Shown: positions 2,255 to 34,025, counted from the stretch's first letter. The stretch is 64,000 bases of DNA from Methanobacteriota archaeon (GCA_043799545.1 JAZDNO010000006.1:32001-96000), one strand, 5' to 3'. Translations and numbers: made by a program. The notes: generated by a model not told the origin, from the letters alone.

Positions 2255-3760
2255 TTGAAGGTTCCCAATCCATTCGAGAATCCGAAGCCCGGAGAATGCT
2301 GGACGGAGCGGGGAGCCAAATATTTCAGGTACGCGTTTGTGATTTTGAGCGTTATCCTCATACTCAGCGCCGTAAGTTCATTTTTCATCAGTAGGGAATT
2401 ATCCAAGGCGAGCGGAACGGTCGTGGAATCTCCCGAATTGATTGCACTTGTTGCAGCAGATATGATACTCGGTAGCCTTCAAATAGGACTGGGCGCTCTC
2501 ATGAGCTTGCTCCTTCTGTTGGGACTGGTCGGATTCTATACCGGTAGAAAAGAGTTCGGGGAAAAGCACGAGAAGAATGTCAAAAGAGCAATGGTCACCA
2601 TCGTATTCGCAATTGGTTTTATTGCAGCATCGTTCGCCTTACTACCGCAAGCGACAAGCGGGGGTTACGAGTTTACAGATGGGCAGGTAATTGTTCTCGG
2701 AGCATCGGATACCAACATAGACGGTGCGACCGTCTTCAACACATTGTTGAGTGGCGTCATGGTTCTGATTGGACTGGTATGCATTACCTTATTTTTATAC
2801 TTCTTTATCGTGGAATTAAGCAGTCAGCAGCAAAAAGCAAACATCGTCGGGGCAGCTGGCGTTATCATTGTTTCCGCAATCGTCTGGCAAATAATATTGT
2901 CTTATCTGGTTATGACATCTGATATCGAATCTGCGGCCGACATTTTAAATGTTCAAGCCATAGCCATACTTTTGTTTATTCCGATTGCTGTAGGCTTATC
3001 GATGATGGCCATCGCCTATAACGGTGTTTTCAAGAGAATCAAAAACAGGGAGATAAAACCGAAATTGCCAGAAGTTGTTTCTGTTCCTCCGATAACCTCA
3101 TCGTCCGTACCATGTGCGGAGATGTCGCCAGTCAACGTGTCGTCGATACTTGCTTCAGCGCACCCGTTGGTCGAGGAAATCGTCCGATTAGAATACAAAA
3201 TTCGAATGCCGCTAACTTGGATTATCGCAATAATTTATACGATGCTCATTTGTTGGTTTCTGGGCATATGGGTTGGGCTCGTAATATTGGCAATAACCAT
3301 AGTCCTTTTGGGTTGGACGTTATGGGGTTTCAAGGCATACCAGACAAAGTACCAATATAAGCCTATGGGGCAGGTTACAGTCTGGCACATTCTTTATTGG
3401 CGGACCCACCTTAGAAACGCACAGGATAAATCTTACGAAGTTAAGGATTATTATCCGTATGTTGTCAGTGACACGCTCCTAATGATAACCGATATCAAAG
3501 GTTATTTTGAATATAAAATTATCAGCGCCATAGTGTTCGTACCACTATTGCTCGTATTTTTCTTGAATAGTACTCTCCCGGTGAGCGATGGGAACGGTCC
3601 CCCGTGGGCTATGTGGATCGCAGCGATTGGTTTTATCGCCTCTACTATGTTCATCGACTTGGCCATTTGGGGTGTTCTGCGGAGCCGATTCAAGGACGTC
3701 CGGAAACGATTGGAGACCTTCAAATCGAACATAGACGCCTTCTGGCGGGCGTATGGGTGA
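2255..3760 (+). CDS. Multi-pass membrane protein of unknown function, AT-rich relative to its flanks
   Basis: About 10-11 hydrophobic segments in two blocks separated by a Pro/Ser-rich linker; GRKEFGEKH motif resembles archaeal DUF973/DUF996-like membrane proteins; visibly lower GC. Confidence 0.65.
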   Translation: MKVPNPFENPKPGECWTERGAKYFRYAFVILSVILILSAVSSFFISRELSKASGTVVESPELIALVAADMILGSLQIGLGALMSLLLLLGLVGFYTGRKEFGEKHEKNVKRAMVTIVFAIGFIAASFALLPQATSGGYEFTDGQVIVLGASDTNIDGATVFNTLLSGVMVLIGLVCITLFLYFFIVELSSQQQKANIVGAAGVIIVSAIVWQIILSYLVMTSDIESAADILNVQAIAILLFIPIAVGLSMMAIAYNGVFKRIKNREIKPKLPEVVSVPPITSSSVPCAEMSPVNVSSILASAHPLVEEIVRLEYKIRMPLTWIIAIIYTMLICWFLGIWVGLVILAITIVLLGWTLWGFKAYQTKYQYKPMGQVTVWHILYWRTHLRNAQDKSYEVKDYYPYVVSDTLLMITDIKGYFEYKIISAIVFVPLLLVFFLNSTLPVSDGNGPPWAMWIAAIGFIASTMFIDLAIWGVLRSRFKDVRKRLETFKSNIDAFWRAYG

Positions 3761-16196: not shown

Positions 16197-17048
16197 ATGA
16201 TTGGCGTAGCTAAATTGCTTGGAATTGAGGAGTTCGTAGAGAATATCAAAGTACACATGGCTACGGAGCCGGGGGATGCCTACAGGCCATTGAAAGAATA
16301 TGAAGCAGGGATAGAATCTTTCAAGAAATGGCAGGACTACCAAGGCAACGATATCTTCAAGAGGAAATATGTAGCTTCGTTCGTCCAATATCGTAAGAAC
16401 GTCTGGTTGTTTGTCGGGGTCTGGGAGATTAAGGGTTTCGTTAATAAACCACGCGATAAGGATGCAGGGGATTGGGCTAATCCGGGAGCCAAGATACGTT
16501 ATAATTCTTCCCTCACGAGTTACGGGAAGGATTTGGTCGGACGCTTGCTCATAGACTGGGTGCGCACCCAACGAGACCGAAATTCATACCGGAACGGTGA
16601 GAATTTTTTCCATCAATTAGGTGTGAAATACATCAAAGAGAAGAAGCATGAAACATCCGAATACCCAGGTCCCGATGATGTTCACCTTACGCACTCAGAA
16701 CTCACGACTATTGTCGATAAAGAGGTGGAGTCTTGGAAAGTTTCCTTGTCCTATCTAAAAGGAGTCTATTTAATAATGGACAATAAAACGGGCAAAGGTT
16801 ACGTTGGTAGCGCTACAGGCGAGGATTATCTCTGGCAGAGATGGTGTCAATATGCAAAAACGGGGCATGGTGGCAACAAGCTACTGGTGCGCCTTTTAAA
16901 AAAGGAGGGCGATGACTACGCTGACAACTTTACGTTTTCTCTATTACAGGTCTTCAACCCCTCTGTTGATGATAACGTTGTGATTGAGCGTGAAAGTTTC
17001 TGGAAGAGTGTTTTACTCACACGAGATTTCGGGTATAACGACAATTGA
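16197..17048 (+). CDS. GIY-YIG nuclease family protein on an AT-rich insertion
   Basis: GVYLIMDNKTGKGYVGSA...LWQRW..Y...GHGGN...E..WK..L.TR.FGYNDN C-terminal GIY-YIG domain; lower GC than flanks. Confidence 0.85.
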   Translation: MIGVAKLLGIEEFVENIKVHMATEPGDAYRPLKEYEAGIESFKKWQDYQGNDIFKRKYVASFVQYRKNVWLFVGVWEIKGFVNKPRDKDAGDWANPGAKIRYNSSLTSYGKDLVGRLLIDWVRTQRDRNSYRNGENFFHQLGVKYIKEKKHETSEYPGPDDVHLTHSELTTIVDKEVESWKVSLSYLKGVYLIMDNKTGKGYVGSATGEDYLWQRWCQYAKTGHGGNKLLVRLLKKEGDDYADNFTFSLLQVFNPSVDDNVVIERESFWKSVLLTRDFGYNDN

Positions 17049-28876: not shown

Positions 28877-29803
28877 ATGTTCAATTTTCTCAAAGAGAAG
28901 CTCGGGCTGATAAAAAACGAGGCTTCTGCGGACAAAGATCTCATAGTCGAGCAGGGCGGCTTTTGGTCTATCAAGGAGTCGAAACTCGAGGATGTCCTGT
29001 GGGCGCTGGAAGTATCGCTGATGGAGGCCGACGTAGCCGTCGAGGTGATAGCCGAGATAAAGGACAGCCTCAAGAAGGAGCTGGTGGGAAAGAAGCTGGC
29101 ATGGGGGGCGAACATCGGGGAGGCGGTCGAGGGCGCGCTTCGCAAGAGCGTCACGTCGCTGCTGTCCCGGCAAAGCTTCGATTTCGATCAGTTCGTCGCC
29201 GGGCACGCCCGGCCAGTCGTGGTGATGTTCGTCGGGGTGAACGGGACGGGCAAAACGACGGCCATCGCGAAGGTGGCCAATCGGCTGAAATCTCAGAAGA
29301 TGGGATGCGTTTTGGCCGCCGGTGACACGTTCCGCGCCGGGGCGATAGAGCAGCTCTCGCTCCACGCCGACAAGCTAGGGGTCAAGGTAATCAAGCACTT
29401 GGCCGGCAGCGACCCGGCTGCGGTGGCCTACGACGCCATAGAGCACGCCCGCGCCAGGAACAAGGACATCGTTTTGATTGATACGGCGGGCAGGATGCAG
29501 ACGAACGCGAACCTGATGGACGAGCTGAAGAAGGTCAAGCGCGTGGCCGAGCCCCATCTCGTAATATTCGTAGGAGACTCTCTCGCGGGAAACGACGCCA
29601 TAGAGCAGGCGAAGGCGTTCGATGCGGCGGTGGGAATAAACGCGGTCATACTCACGAAAATCGACGCGGACTCCAAAGGCGGCGCCGCGCTGAGCATCGC
29701 GCACGCCATCAGGAAGCCCATCGCGTTCGTCTCCACGGGCCAGGAATACGACCAGTTCCAGAAGTTCGACGCGGAGTGGATGGCGAAGAGGATATTCGAG
29801 TGA
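28877..29803 (+). CDS. ftsY: SRP receptor FtsY
   Basis: GVNGTGKTT, DTFRAGA, DTAGR, TKIDAD.KGG. Confidence 0.96.
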   Translation: MFNFLKEKLGLIKNEASADKDLIVEQGGFWSIKESKLEDVLWALEVSLMEADVAVEVIAEIKDSLKKELVGKKLAWGANIGEAVEGALRKSVTSLLSRQSFDFDQFVAGHARPVVVMFVGVNGTGKTTAIAKVANRLKSQKMGCVLAAGDTFRAGAIEQLSLHADKLGVKVIKHLAGSDPAAVAYDAIEHARARNKDIVLIDTAGRMQTNANLMDELKKVKRVAEPHLVIFVGDSLAGNDAIEQAKAFDAAVGINAVILTKIDADSKGGAALSIAHAIRKPIAFVSTGQEYDQFQKFDAEWMAKRIFE

Positions 29804-29806
29804 TAC

Positions 29807-32113
29807 TTATTTCTTAGTGGCTTTTATCCTAGCGCAAACTGGACACCAGGTTCCATTATTTTTAATACTGCTTGGTCTTGCTTCCCAAGTATGTCCTTTA
29901 TTGCACATCCATTTTATCTTAGTATTATTGTTCAGATATTTGTCTGAAACACATCGCCCTCCTCGTTTTTGTGCAATTTCTTTCATTAACTCTATGTTTA
30001 ACCTTTGGGATGCTCCTTTCTTCGATTGTGCACATATAGGGCACCATTGCCCCCTTTGAATATGACCTGGTGTATTCTCCCATTCATGACCGAAACCACA
30101 GCGCCATTTTAACTTTGTTTTAGAATTAACATATCGTTTGGATAGACACATACCTCCGCAATTCTCTGCAATTCGTTGCATATGGTCTATTGTTTTGCCA
30201 CGGCCAACACAAAAAGGGCACCAGTGGCCTTGCCTAACTGTTGATGGTCGAGCTAAGAATATATGCCCTTCTTTACATCTCCATTTCAATTTAGTTGATG
30301 AATTAAAATATTTTGGTGATATGCATTTTCCACCTTTCAATATTGCTAATTTCTCCATATCTTCAATCGACGGCCGTTGTGCATCAATTACCTTTTTGCG
30401 ACTACAAATGTGACACCAATGGCCTTTTGCTATTGATGTAGGTACTGCCAACCATTCATGGCCTTCACTACATTTCCATTTCAATTTAGTTGAAGAATTG
30501 ATATATGCCTGAGATTGACAAATTCCATTCTTCACCGAAGCCAATTTATTCATATCTTCTATTGTTTTTCCATAGCCAACGCAATAGGGGCACCAATGAC
30601 CCATGAAAATGCTTGCCGGGGGGGCCTCCCAAATGTGCCCATCTTTGCATTTCCATTTTAATTTGACATTACTTTTAATATATTTTTCCGAGAGACAATC
30701 TCCTCCTTTATTTTTCGCATATTCTCTCATATCTTCTATTGTTTTATGGCGTCCGACACAATAAGGGCACCAGCTCCGTCGCTTCACGTGAATTGGCATG
30801 GCTGACCAAATATGGCCCTCTTTACATTTCCAATCTAATGCAGTATGGCTGTTTATATATACTTTTGAAAGGCAGGTCCCACCCCTTTCGCTCGCTATTT
30901 GTCTCATTTCATTTATCTTGTTTGGCTTATAAATATTGAAAGATTTGTAATTATAAATATCTAAATTGTTAATGGTAAATTTCAAGTCTCTATTTTTGCA
31001 CTGGTTGATGATAAATTCCGCCATTTTATCGAATTCAATATCGTATGGTACTTCTATTAAAGCGATGTTATGTTTCACACATAACTCTCTTTTTACTTGG
31101 TCCCTCATCTGCCTTTCTATTAACGATTCCTTCTGATCAAAAAACTTCTTAGTTTTATAATGTTGCACTCCAGAATATTCAAAAGCTATGCCTAGTTCTT
31201 TGCAGTAACCATCTAATTCCATTTTATTGCCCGTCTTTGGATTTATCAACCAGGATGGTTTTATCCTTGGAAACTCCTTTTTGAAAAGTCGTTGAAAGAT
31301 CTCTCGACATATTTTCTCGCTCACGCCAGTTTTACATACTGGACACCATTGTCCTTTTTTAATATTACTAACTATATTTACCCACGAGTGCCCCTCGCTA
31401 CATTGCCATTTTAAAGGAGTTCGATTACTGGAATATTTGCTGGATAGTAATAGTCCACCTCTTGCTTTGGCAAGGTCTTGAATATCCTTAATGCGTAATC
31501 TTTGTCTGTCGGTATTGCGTTCTATAGCGCAAGTAGGACACCATTGACCACGTTTTACACTATGTGGCGCCATATAAAACGTATGTCCTTTTTTACAACG
31601 CCATAATAACTTTAAAAAGGCATCACCACATTTTTTTGATAGGCAAGTACCACTCCGTTCGGCAGCAATTGTACGAAGATCTATTATATCGGTTCGGGCT
31701 TTGCCAGCACAACGTGGACACCAAGAACCTTGGTCCTTCACACTATTGACACTGGCACTCCACTCGTGCCCTTTTGAACACTTCCACTTATATCTATTTC
31801 CACTGCGTGTATAAACTAAAGATAAAAACTCTCCACCTCTGTCTTTAGCTAATTTCTGAATATCCTCAATTTTTAACCTACTTCGATTTGCATTGTTTAT
31901 GTTACGACATATAGGACACCAGTGACCTTGAACTAATGAGCTCGGAACAGCTGACCACTCATGACCACATTTGCATTGCCACTTCAATTTTGAATGCATA
32001 TCAATATATCTTTCAGATAAACATTTACCGTCATGATTGGCAGCGTAAGTTCTCATATCCTCAATCGTTTTTTTCTTATTCATAGGCAAAGAACCATATC
32101 TGGGACCAATCAC
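29807..32113 (-). CDS. Zinc-ribbon repeat protein (10 repeats, DUF4379-like) with a central PD-(D/E)XK-like endonuclease domain, on an AT-rich insertion
   Basis: Repeats of about 60-65 aa, W.C..GH.W......G.WCP.C, four before and six after a domain reading E..CR...ELDGY..ELGIAFEYSG.QHY; ATG at 32083 may be the true start. Confidence 0.8.
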   Translation of the reverse strand: MIGPRYGSLPMNKKKTIEDMRTYAANHDGKCLSERYIDMHSKLKWQCKCGHEWSAVPSSLVQGHWCPICRNINNANRSRLKIEDIQKLAKDRGGEFLSLVYTRSGNRYKWKCSKGHEWSASVNSVKDQGSWCPRCAGKARTDIIDLRTIAAERSGTCLSKKCGDAFLKLLWRCKKGHTFYMAPHSVKRGQWCPTCAIERNTDRQRLRIKDIQDLAKARGGLLLSSKYSSNRTPLKWQCSEGHSWVNIVSNIKKGQWCPVCKTGVSEKICREIFQRLFKKEFPRIKPSWLINPKTGNKMELDGYCKELGIAFEYSGVQHYKTKKFFDQKESLIERQMRDQVKRELCVKHNIALIEVPYDIEFDKMAEFIINQCKNRDLKFTINNLDIYNYKSFNIYKPNKINEMRQIASERGGTCLSKVYINSHTALDWKCKEGHIWSAMPIHVKRRSWCPYCVGRHKTIEDMREYAKNKGGDCLSEKYIKSNVKLKWKCKDGHIWEAPPASIFMGHWCPYCVGYGKTIEDMNKLASVKNGICQSQAYINSSTKLKWKCSEGHEWLAVPTSIAKGHWCHICSRKKVIDAQRPSIEDMEKLAILKGGKCISPKYFNSSTKLKWRCKEGHIFLARPSTVRQGHWCPFCVGRGKTIDHMQRIAENCGGMCLSKRYVNSKTKLKWRCGFGHEWENTPGHIQRGQWCPICAQSKKGASQRLNIELMKEIAQKRGGRCVSDKYLNNNTKIKWMCNKGHTWEARPSSIKNNGTWCPVCARIKATKK

Positions 32114-32137
32114 AAATAATTTACCCGACGTGGGGGA

Positions 32138-32986
32138 CTAATCGTCGAACCCTTCCCCGTACACCTTTCTCGGCAGCCCGTCGTGTATCCATCGCACACC
32201 CTCCTCGTCCAGCAGCCCCTTCTCCAGAAGCATCTTCGTTCTGCGAGGAACCGTCGCCGGGCCAAGGACCGCCCCCGGCCTGCGCGGGTCGTCCATGTAG
32301 TCCGTCTCCAGCAGGAAATCGCGCCCTTGCTTCGCCGCTTCCTGGGCGTTCCTATCGCTCGCAAGCACCGAGGGCGTTAAACCGAAGTTCTGTTCACGCG
32401 TGATGTGGGGTGGCGCGAAGTGCTTGACGACCCGCTCCCTGGCAAGTCCCGCTTTATCGGCCATCAAGGCCAGCTCCTCCCAGACCTTCGCTGTCGCGCT
32501 CTCGCAATGGATTACCACGGCGCAACCCTCTCCCTTTGCCACGCTCATTGCGTATGCCATGACGTCGTTCGACGCGTCCATCACGGGCTGTTCGACAGGA
32601 AAGTGGGGGCGCCCGACCTCGCCGATGGCCAGCGCCTTTCCCTCCGCGATGTACTCTGCCGCGAGGTCCATCCCCTCCATCATCAGGGCCTTCGCCTCAG
32701 CGAGGGGCACCTTCTCCATCATCTCCATCATCTCGACCGGGTAAGGCCCGAGGGTGCAATGGCAGCGCATGCCCGTTTCCGCCCGCACCTTGCGCGCCAT
32801 CTCCACGGTTCTGTCGTACCCCTCTCTGAAATCGAAGTTGCGGACGATTGGAATGTCGTGGTAAGGCATGTGAGAGAGGATGATGCGCGTGCCGCCGGCG
32901 CGCTTGAACTCCTCGACAGCCGCCACGTGGCGCCCGGATGGCTGGAGATGCATGTGGTTGTCGAGTATCGGAACCGCATCGCTCAT
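32138..32986 (-). CDS. TatD family hydrolase (archaeal type)
   Basis: DNHMH, IGEVGRPHF, VIHCE, VKHF, LETDYMDD..RPGAV. Confidence 0.85.
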   Translation of the reverse strand: MSDAVPILDNHMHLQPSGRHVAAVEEFKRAGGTRIILSHMPYHDIPIVRNFDFREGYDRTVEMARKVRAETGMRCHCTLGPYPVEMMEMMEKVPLAEAKALMMEGMDLAAEYIAEGKALAIGEVGRPHFPVEQPVMDASNDVMAYAMSVAKGEGCAVVIHCESATAKVWEELALMADKAGLARERVVKHFAPPHITREQNFGLTPSVLASDRNAQEAAKQGRDFLLETDYMDDPRRPGAVLGPATVPRRTKMLLEKGLLDEEGVRWIHDGLPRKVYGEGFDD

Positions 32987-33501
32987 TCCAATTCCAGCCC
33001 CAGCGTGTCCAGGATCTGCACCAGGACCTTGTTAATAGCCTCCTCGTCGTTCGCGCCCGTGACCGCAATCCGTCCAGAGGGGAAGATTGCCGCCTTGGCG
33101 CCGTCAAAAGGTATTTCGAGGCGCGGCTCCTGCATGGACGGGTCTGGAGGGCCGATGCCGAACGACTCTGCCGCCGCCGCCAAATCGATAGATGACGCAA
33201 TCTTCGCTTCGCAGACGACGTTCTCGACCTGCGAGGATTCGACAATGACGTCGTCAGATATGAGGAACGCCGTCGCCTCCCCAACGCCGATGAGCGTGTG
33301 AGGGAGTTGCGGACCCGTAATGAGAAGCTCGCCGTGCGGAAATGCCAGCACCGTGCACTGCGGCTCCGCCCGCTTCTGAACTCCCGCGCCGAGCGCTTCG
33401 TCAGACACCATTCCGGGAATCCGGGCTGACGCATCGGCGAGGTTGAACGGCCTGGAAAGCTTGCAGACGACCACCGCGGAAACGACAATTACATCGGGCA
33501 T
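32983..33501 (-). CDS. Divergent TATA-binding-protein-fold protein
   Basis: Two TBP repeats: ...FNL...TVLAFPHGELLITG and VENVVC...IDL...AAIFPSGRIAVTGA; ATG at 33501 with GAGGA RBS; ATGA overlap with tatD. Confidence 0.7.
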   Translation of the reverse strand: MPDVIVVSAVVVCKLSRPFNLADASARIPGMVSDEALGAGVQKRAEPQCTVLAFPHGELLITGPQLPHTLIGVGEATAFLISDDVIVESSQVENVVCEAKIASSIDLAAAAESFGIGPPDPSMQEPRLEIPFDGAKAAIFPSGRIAVTGANDEEAINKVLVQILDTLGLELE

Positions 33502-33551
33502 GCAATCCTCTTCCGGTGAGTGCCGTGGTTCTCTAATAATACTTTCGCGGC

Positions 33552-34025
33552 TCACTCGATGTTGTTCGCAGAGACTGCGAGCGCAGCCCCTATGGCACCG
33601 AGCGGAAGGATGGCCAGGGCGGCGACAAATCCGGCGGTCCATGCCAGACCGGTGTGCCTGCCAGTGCTCTCCACGGCATCGATTGTGTACGGGATGGCGA
33701 ACAGGACGGCTGTTGAGATGGAGGCAGACAATCCGACGGCCCACGAAGTGACGATGGCCCTCTTCATATTCTCGAATGCCAGGCCGATGCCGGCTCCTGC
33801 GACGACCGGGGCTCCCATGATGATGACCAGCCCCCACCAGGAATCGAAGGTGCTCCAGTCCAGCTCCAGCGCCGAATAGAGGAAGAATGCCGTCGTTTCG
33901 AGGGCGAAAGCCAGAGGGACCGCCAAGCCGAGCCACAGCTTAGGGAGGACGAGCGTTTGCTCAGTCGTGCCCTTTCCCTGCGAACTCCAATGGGCAAGGG
34001 TTCCAGCCTCTTCATCCTCCGCCAT
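33552..34025 (-). CDS. Four-TM hypothetical membrane protein
   Basis: Hydrophobic helices; ATG overlaps the upstream TGA (TGATG). Confidence 0.65.
   Translation of the reverse strand: MAEDEEAGTLAHWSSQGKGTTEQTLVLPKLWLGLAVPLAFALETTAFFLYSALELDWSTFDSWWGLVIIMGAPVVAGAGIGLAFENMKRAIVTSWAVGLSASISTAVLFAIPYTIDAVESTGRHTGLAWTAGFVAALAILPLGAIGAALAVSANNIE

Follow-up and report, generated by a model that had tools for sequence, protein, structure and literature searches.

A free-standing archaeal gene for a putative homing-type endonuclease with a Vsr-type core between two zinc-module arrays

A 64,000-nucleotide stretch of a Methanobacteriota archaeon genome (GCA_043799545.1, JAZDNO010000006.1:32001-96000; hereafter the window) carries, on the minus strand between ftsY and tatD, a gene whose product contains ten zinc-finger modules split four and six around a central Vsr-type nuclease. 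We consider it probable that this free-standing gene, acquired horizontally, encodes a selfish homing-type site-specific endonuclease, in which the two zinc arrays would anchor the central nuclease to a long target. An original prediction made from the DNA sequence alone had suggested a homing or conflict role, which we judge the best reading of the locus. In the proposed mechanism, the two strongly basic arrays (four N-terminal and six C-terminal modules) would bind long DNA on both sides of the nuclease and place the central Vsr/EDxHD-type, Mg-dependent nuclease on its target, after which gene-less alleles would be cut and recombinational repair would copy the gene into them. The candidate target that suggests itself first is the intact stop-to-stop junction of ftsY and tatD, because the conserved 3′ ends of two coding genes meet at it and it is lost on insertion. 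The protein itself is an intact, ordinary member of a very large, already described and probably selfish nuclease family; new here are the empty site, a second cargo at the same junction and a second filled/empty locus in the same archaeal order.

An AT-rich insert and its empty counterpart

The gene is a single minus-strand open reading frame (ORF) at 29807-32113, encoding 768 amino acids (aa) counted from the GTG at 32113, free of internal stops and present in one copy in its host genome, a 2.06-Mb archaeal metagenome-assembled genome (MAG) of 31 contigs. The public gene call for the same protein (P0002) gives 758 aa from the ATG at 32083 (MNKKK...), and homologues likewise begin at the equivalent of this ATG, which is more likely than the GTG to be the start and sets the gene at 29807-32083; residue numbers below nevertheless count from the GTG. 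The expected AT-rich insertion was confirmed, with a GC content of 35-43% in 500-nt windows compared with ~60% in the flanks. GC content at third codon positions was 0.32 in the nuclease gene versus 0.64-0.81 in six neighbouring genes, and lysine codons were distributed AAA:AAG = 72:21 in the nuclease gene versus 22:72 in the neighbours. The nuclease gene is therefore recently arrived foreign DNA with unameliorated codon usage. A sharp composition break in a MAG of 31 contigs might also come from an assembly or binning artefact that joined an AT-rich segment foreign to this genome, but this is extremely improbable, as the insert lies inside a 222,880-bp contig where host genes flank it on either side, its boundaries fall at two stop codons, and analogous inserts occur in independent genomes.

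At the left junction (29801-29809), the ftsY stop TGA (29801-29803) is followed by a 3-nt spacer and the stop of the nuclease gene (TTA on the plus strand, 29807-29809), exactly the 3-nt separation that had been noted. At the right junction (32084-32140, minus strand), a 54-nt region lies between the ATG and the tatD stop (32138-32140), so that the predicted start within 25 bp of the tatD stop holds for the GTG, 24 nt away, but not for the likelier ATG, 54 nt away. An A/T box, TAAATTATTT, at 32114-32123, 31-40 nt before the ATG, is possibly an archaeal TATA element. Searches of the insert ends for terminal inverted or direct repeats, a target-site duplication, a tRNA or an intron RNA found none, in agreement with the earlier statement that the gene has neither a target-site duplication nor a partner gene.

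In a relative represented by a metagenomic contig (L133), where prefoldin lies upstream and FtsY and TatD are 83% and 78% identical to the host copies, ftsY and tatD converge, just 3 bp separate their stop codons, and GC is ~60% throughout; this junction is an empty site. Together with the codon usage, it bears out a foreign single-gene insertion. By contrast, a genome of the same genus (G001) has at the same ftsY/tatD junction (L041, G001:C170, 945-2990) a different AT-rich insert, 2.05 kb long and of 31-36% GC, consisting of two minus-strand ORFs unrelated to the nuclease, one of 303 aa rich in transmembrane segments (959-1870) and one of 305 aa with many CxxC zinc-ribbon pairs (1981-2898); no Pfam match to either passes the gathering threshold, and PADLOC matched neither. 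The three genomes are homologous up to the ftsY stop and again from the tatD 3′ end onwards. One stop-to-stop junction is thus reused by unrelated AT-rich cargo in two congeneric archaea, an integration hotspot without a recognisable integrase. In more distant relatives tatD is not adjacent to ftsY, so the synteny is limited to this genus. A short TTTA(C/T)CCG motif just outside the tatD stop is common to both filled genomes (window 32114-32137; L041 2985-2995), with ~14 extra GC-rich nt beside it in the window; the motif is very short and could be a relic of the ancestral tatD 3′ end or a common insertion point.

Family presence is patchy. Members were found in 4 of 40 related genomes, all at other loci in low-GC patches and 43-54% identical to the window protein, and one of the four is interrupted by stop codons. 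The member in G009 (L044, G009:C65, 4433-6448; 517 aa) makes up a low-GC, single-gene insert of ~2 kb that separates convergent CBS-domain and histone-deacetylase (HDAC) genes. These two genes lie ~190 bp apart in three relatives (L048-L050), so the same archaeal order provides a second pair of filled and empty sites. At both the ftsY/tatD and the CBS/HDAC sites, then, the insertion is missing from relatives, as expected of mobile elements.

Two different AT-rich cargos at one junction in congeneric genomes and a patchy distribution might alternatively reflect a single-gene defence or conflict nuclease, whose arrays would read viral or plasmid DNA while the host is protected, the junction being a variable cargo hotspot like a defence island; array diversity could also suit many targets. 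We nonetheless regard a defence role as unlikely, as no PADLOC-DB v2 family matches the window protein or the G001 cargo (E <= 0.01), the neighbours are housekeeping rather than defence genes, the nearest contexts to have been characterised are those of phage homing endonuclease genes (HEGs), intron-borne and intergenic, and array divergence is no faster than that of the core, as detailed below.

Zinc modules and nuclease core

The whole protein is strongly basic (pI 9.6, net charge +73), which makes DNA binding plausible. Its N-terminal array R1-R4 (aa 14-260; 31334-32074, minus strand; net charge +27) comprises four CapR/DUF4379 treble-clef modules and its C-terminal array R5-R10 (aa 396-768; 29810-30928, minus strand; net charge +41) six zinc-finger modules, with WCxxC anchors at aa 65, 131, 191 and 256 in the former and at aa 448, 507, 566, 631, 690 and 756 in the latter. 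Repeat periods are 66, 60 and 65 aa in the first array and 59, 59, 65, 59 and 66 aa in the second. The ten repeats are 32-61% identical to one another and all keep C33, H37, C52 and C55 (repeat numbering), confirming both their predicted number and the scaffold written for them, with periods of 59-66 aa. Pfam matched PF14311 (DUF4379, "probable treble clef zinc finger") in ten stretches (E 1.8e-52) and PF21817, the CapR homology domain (E 1.6e-17). CapR, from the Vibrio cholerae PLE satellite, recognises a specific promoter site, and mutation of its four cysteines abolishes binding; it is related to putative homing endonucleases of phage ICP1 (PMC8096241). The repeats are therefore zinc-finger modules, as predicted, of a type that binds DNA sequence-specifically in CapR.

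An AlphaFold2 model of R5-R7 (predicted local distance difference test score, pLDDT, 93; predicted template modelling score, pTM, 0.61) gave each module an N-terminal helix, a β-hairpin bearing C33 and H37, a short helix at 43-48 and a WCPxC knuckle. Comparison of the repeat model with solved structures returned no convincing relative (best Z 4.2), the weak neighbours being the Trypanosoma brucei mitoribosomal proteins 6sga_Fd, 6hiv_DS and 6yxx_E2 (Z 3.4-4.2).

The nuclease core (aa 261-395; 30929-31333, minus strand) lies mid-protein, where the original prediction had placed a nuclease domain around ELDGY...IAFEYSGVQHY, and its assignment draws on an AlphaFold2 model, fold matches and invariant residues. 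The model of these central 135 residues (pLDDT 88, pTM 0.81) was matched best by VIA-align to DNA-bound Escherichia coli Vsr (1cw0_A; Z 8.9 over 112 residues) and second to the catalytic domain of I-Bth0305I (3r3p_B, Z 8.8, 96 of 98 residues aligned), followed by other Vsr-like and PD-(D/E)XK folds, bearing out the proposed Vsr/PD-(D/E)XK-type nuclease. Foldseek with the core gave weak matches (Vsr, probability 0.85-0.89, E 0.35-0.4). No PDB entry was matched in sequence searches that used the protein, the core or a 42-sequence profile as query, so the core was identified through fold comparison alone; the Pfam Vsr and DUF559 profiles likewise do not match the protein at E <= 0.1, and in the predicted model the similarity to Vsr is structural only. 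PHROG 9084 and 7140, homing/intron nuclease families, match aa 295-386.

In an alignment with 41 homologues, E266, D301, E312, H318 and K341 were invariant and D338 nearly so, leaving the metal and catalytic residues intact. D301 (codon 31211-31213) and H318 (codon 31160-31162) are 17 residues apart, the same spacing as between D196 and H213 of I-Bth0305I (PMC3239194). The core residues thus fit the composite E-D-x-H-D motif, an equivalence suggested by spacing rather than by residue-level superposition. These residues also bear on whether the protein has been domesticated as a DNA-binding regulator or nucleoid protein, CapR-like, with a nuclease that is no longer important. CapR is itself a domesticated HEG DNA-binding domain serving as a repressor (PMC8096241), but with all EDxHD-type residues intact and invariant in homologues, codon usage that points to recent arrival, and the gene missing from the closest relatives, such a fate is very unlikely.

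Weaker matches to the core were the RAP-domain protein FASTKD4 (Z 7.9) and Toxoplasma and Tetrahymena mitoribosome chains; the lower-ranked fold neighbours of both the core and the zinc module are thus organellar RNA-associated proteins.

Such secondary matches to RAP-domain and mitoribosomal proteins, for core and repeat alike, would suit an RNA-directed protein whose arrays and Vsr/RAP-like core bind or cut RNA. Given that they are weaker than the matches to Vsr and I-Bth0305I, that CapR binds double-stranded DNA, and that the intron and intergenic contexts of the family are typical of DNA homing, we consider an RNA target highly improbable.

Family membership and known relatives

At a clustering level of 50% identity, the core alone retrieved 13,277 representative clusters at E <= 1e-3 and, under the stricter cut-off of E <= 1e-10, 4,946. 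Full-length homologues (n = 120) are 33-50% identical to the window protein and 422-1344 aa long, and come from archaea, Bacillus/Paenibacillus, Scalindua and many metagenomes. A single nuclease core was present in 118 of the 120 and was flanked by two arrays in all but one of these, with 1-8 N-terminal and 2-12 C-terminal modules, most commonly 5+5, 4+5 and 5+4. Among viral-contig loci (the best 80 of 229), the nuclease was C-terminal in 37 and central in 17, and 25 had no such repeats; giant-virus bins (IMG/VR GVMAG loci) were among them, in keeping with the earlier claim that similar fusions occur in giant viruses, and similar zinc-ribbon/nuclease fusions in giant viruses and phages have been reported (PMC5513546). 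A whole-protein contig scan included one distant Bacteroidetes locus among the matches listed. Strong matches were obtained to PHROG families 559, 681 and 9084, and the relatives in T5-like, Campylobacter Hef and Listeria phages carry homing endonuclease annotation.

The novelty implied by the original prediction is lower than it seemed, since a 2025 paper had already described this combination of domains as a large homing-endonuclease outgroup. That study of phage group II introns reported intron-borne proteins in which three to five CapR/DUF4379/DUF723-like domains of ~60 aa precede an EDxHD/Vsr-like nuclease, found this domain kit inside phage group I and II introns, called it a large unrecognised outgroup of EDxHD/Vsr HEGs, and already remarked on thousands of unannotated relatives (PMC12350094). 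The window protein resembles these proteins in combining tandem ~60-aa zinc modules and a Vsr/EDxHD-like nuclease in one polypeptide, presumably with the same logic, in which the modules would give the nuclease its specificity. However, the intron-borne proteins have 3-5 modules and a C-terminal nuclease and lie within phage-gene introns, whereas the window protein has ten modules split 4 + 6 around a central nuclease and is encoded by a free-standing archaeal gene. The split arrangement is dominant in cellular and metagenomic homologues and a minority in viral contigs (17 of the best 80).

I-Bth0305I (PDB 3R3P; PMC3239194), the prototype EDxHD homing endonuclease, shares with the window protein the nuclease fold, the E-D-x-H-D residues and the D-to-H spacing of 17, with no detectable sequence match between the two. 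Its DNA footprint is ~60 bp (PMC3239194), and by analogy a long footprint may be expected of the window protein too. I-Bth0305I is an intron-encoded homodimer with an N-terminal NUMOD2/helix-turn-helix (HTH) region and a C-terminal nuclease, in contrast to the zinc modules and intergenic gene described here. In the absence of NUMOD2/HTH and of an intron or intein, the window protein is a relative of the EDxHD family in the sense of I-Bth0305I rather than a strict member.

Other known systems share parts of this architecture. CapR has a homologous zinc module (PF21817) but is a single-module repressor without nuclease, in contrast to the ten modules with C-x3-H...C-x2-C ligands and the nuclease of the window protein, and the T5orf172/GIY-YIG HEGs of ICP1 pair the module with a GIY-YIG-type rather than a Vsr-type nuclease (PMC8096241). 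E. coli Vsr (PDB 1CW0/1VSR), the best fold match, has the same catalytic Asp/His arrangement but is a stand-alone T:G mismatch repair nickase with intercalating Trp residues and its own zinc site. Engineered zinc-finger nucleases (ZFNs) and transcription activator-like effector (TALE) nucleases (TALENs), which likewise fuse tandem small DNA-binding modules to a low-specificity nuclease, offer an analogy in working principle only, as the module fold of the window protein is unrelated, its nuclease is internal rather than terminal, and no module-to-base code is evident.

Array evolution, mode of spread and neighbouring genes

The original prediction had proposed a natural ZFN/TALEN analogue, possibly with a repeat-to-base code; as an architectural analogy this is fair, but the code is unsupported. 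Across the 1188 repeats, which come from 118 proteins, the scaffold hardly varies (I3, M6, A10, G15, C17, L18, S19, Y22, L29, W31, C33, G36, H37, W39, P43, I46, G49, W51, C52 and C55), and entropy rises above 3 bits at about 14 positions, which are distributed among the first helix, the 20-26 loop, the hairpin and the short helix. The residues that separate GHxW from GxWCP, previously singled out as freely variable, are no more variable than other exposed positions and correspond to the short helix, in which variable residues 42, 44, 45 and 48 lie on one face around conserved P43, I46 and K47. These four positions co-vary with loop positions 25 and 26, and it is plausible that the short-helix face and the loop form the recognition surface.

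This candidate recognition helix showed 842 distinct four-residue signatures in the 1188 repeats, with no small set of types, and the best match of each repeat of the window protein fell at an arbitrary position in other proteins, on either side of the nuclease. In 13 homologue pairs 70-84% identical, the arrays were collinear and diverged by 21% compared with 22% for the core, so that faster evolution of the variable positions or arrays, an expectation of the original prediction, is not seen in protein-level divergence. A TALE-like code is unsupported because of the 842 signatures, with some 14 exposed positions equally variable and no repeat types, the arbitrary best-match positions and the lack of excess array divergence. 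Comparison of homologues for repeat shuffling found collinear arrays at 60-84% identity and no positional orthology of repeats at <=50% identity; shuffling is therefore slow or old and not ongoing.

The family repeat period is bimodal, at 59-61 aa (600 cases) or 65-66 aa (274 cases), which indicates two linker classes, each with a conserved sequence (CxGxxKTIEDM versus a longer ...QRLxIEDI). One could imagine the split 4 + 6 array as a truly modular reader, in which helix positions 42, 44, 45 and 48 and the co-varying loop 23-27 would let each ~60-aa module touch a set number of base pairs, the linker classes would set the register, and the ftsY/tatD junction would be read with the nuclease centred on the insertion point. 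We think this distinctly unlikely. If true, target specificity would be predictable and re-programmable from module sequence, the arrays would join C2H2 fingers and TALE repeats as a third natural scaffold for modular DNA recognition, and their modular reading of long asymmetric targets would be of interest to genome engineers; if the arrays are not modular readers, the locus is a routine case of a selfish nuclease landing in an archaeal chromosome.

Several considerations weigh against the homing-type endonuclease that we favour. An AT-rich donor cannot have shared the flanks, and since the ftsY-tatD synteny is confined to the genus, the insertion was probably ectopic rather than classical allele homing. 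The unrelated G001 cargo at the same junction means that the site may simply be a permissive hotspot. Vsr nicks and I-Bth0305I cuts as a dimer; domains of this type nick unless they dimerise, and a monomer with a central nuclease may or may not make a double-strand break. The absence of PADLOC matches and of a partner gene is consistent with a selfish element but does not prove one, and our literature search found no assay of any zinc-array family member. The locus makes a good test case in having an intact gene with unameliorated codon usage, an insertion point known to the nucleotide, and a natural empty site, at L133:1190-1300, as a candidate substrate.

The host flanks are housekeeping genes. 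ftsY (28877-29803, plus strand; Pfam SRP54, E 2.4e-75) and the tatD-family hydrolase gene (32138-32986, minus strand; Pfam TatD_DNase, E 5.3e-29), which lies upstream of the insert in the same orientation, are convergent, with genes for TBP, prefoldin and the SRP receptor nearby. The host is a Thermoplasmata-like archaeon. The nearest named relatives of FtsY are those of Thermoplasmata and Methanomassiliicoccales archaea (64-67% identity), and an ftsY 94% identical to the host copy exists in the database (P0272). The gene upstream of tatD (32983-33936, minus strand) has a C-terminal TBP-fold match of one repeat (Pfam TBP, E 3.1e-12).

Two further lower-GC patches lie in the window. One (44-47% GC; 2255-3760, plus strand) codes for a multi-pass membrane protein of 501 aa that matches no Pfam family. 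The other (~45% GC; 16197-17048, plus strand) contains a 283-aa ORF with a weak C-terminal GIY-YIG match (Pfam E 4.8e-4, under the cut-off; motif GVYLI...GKGYVGSA), which, judged from its sequence, may be a further selfish or repair nuclease.

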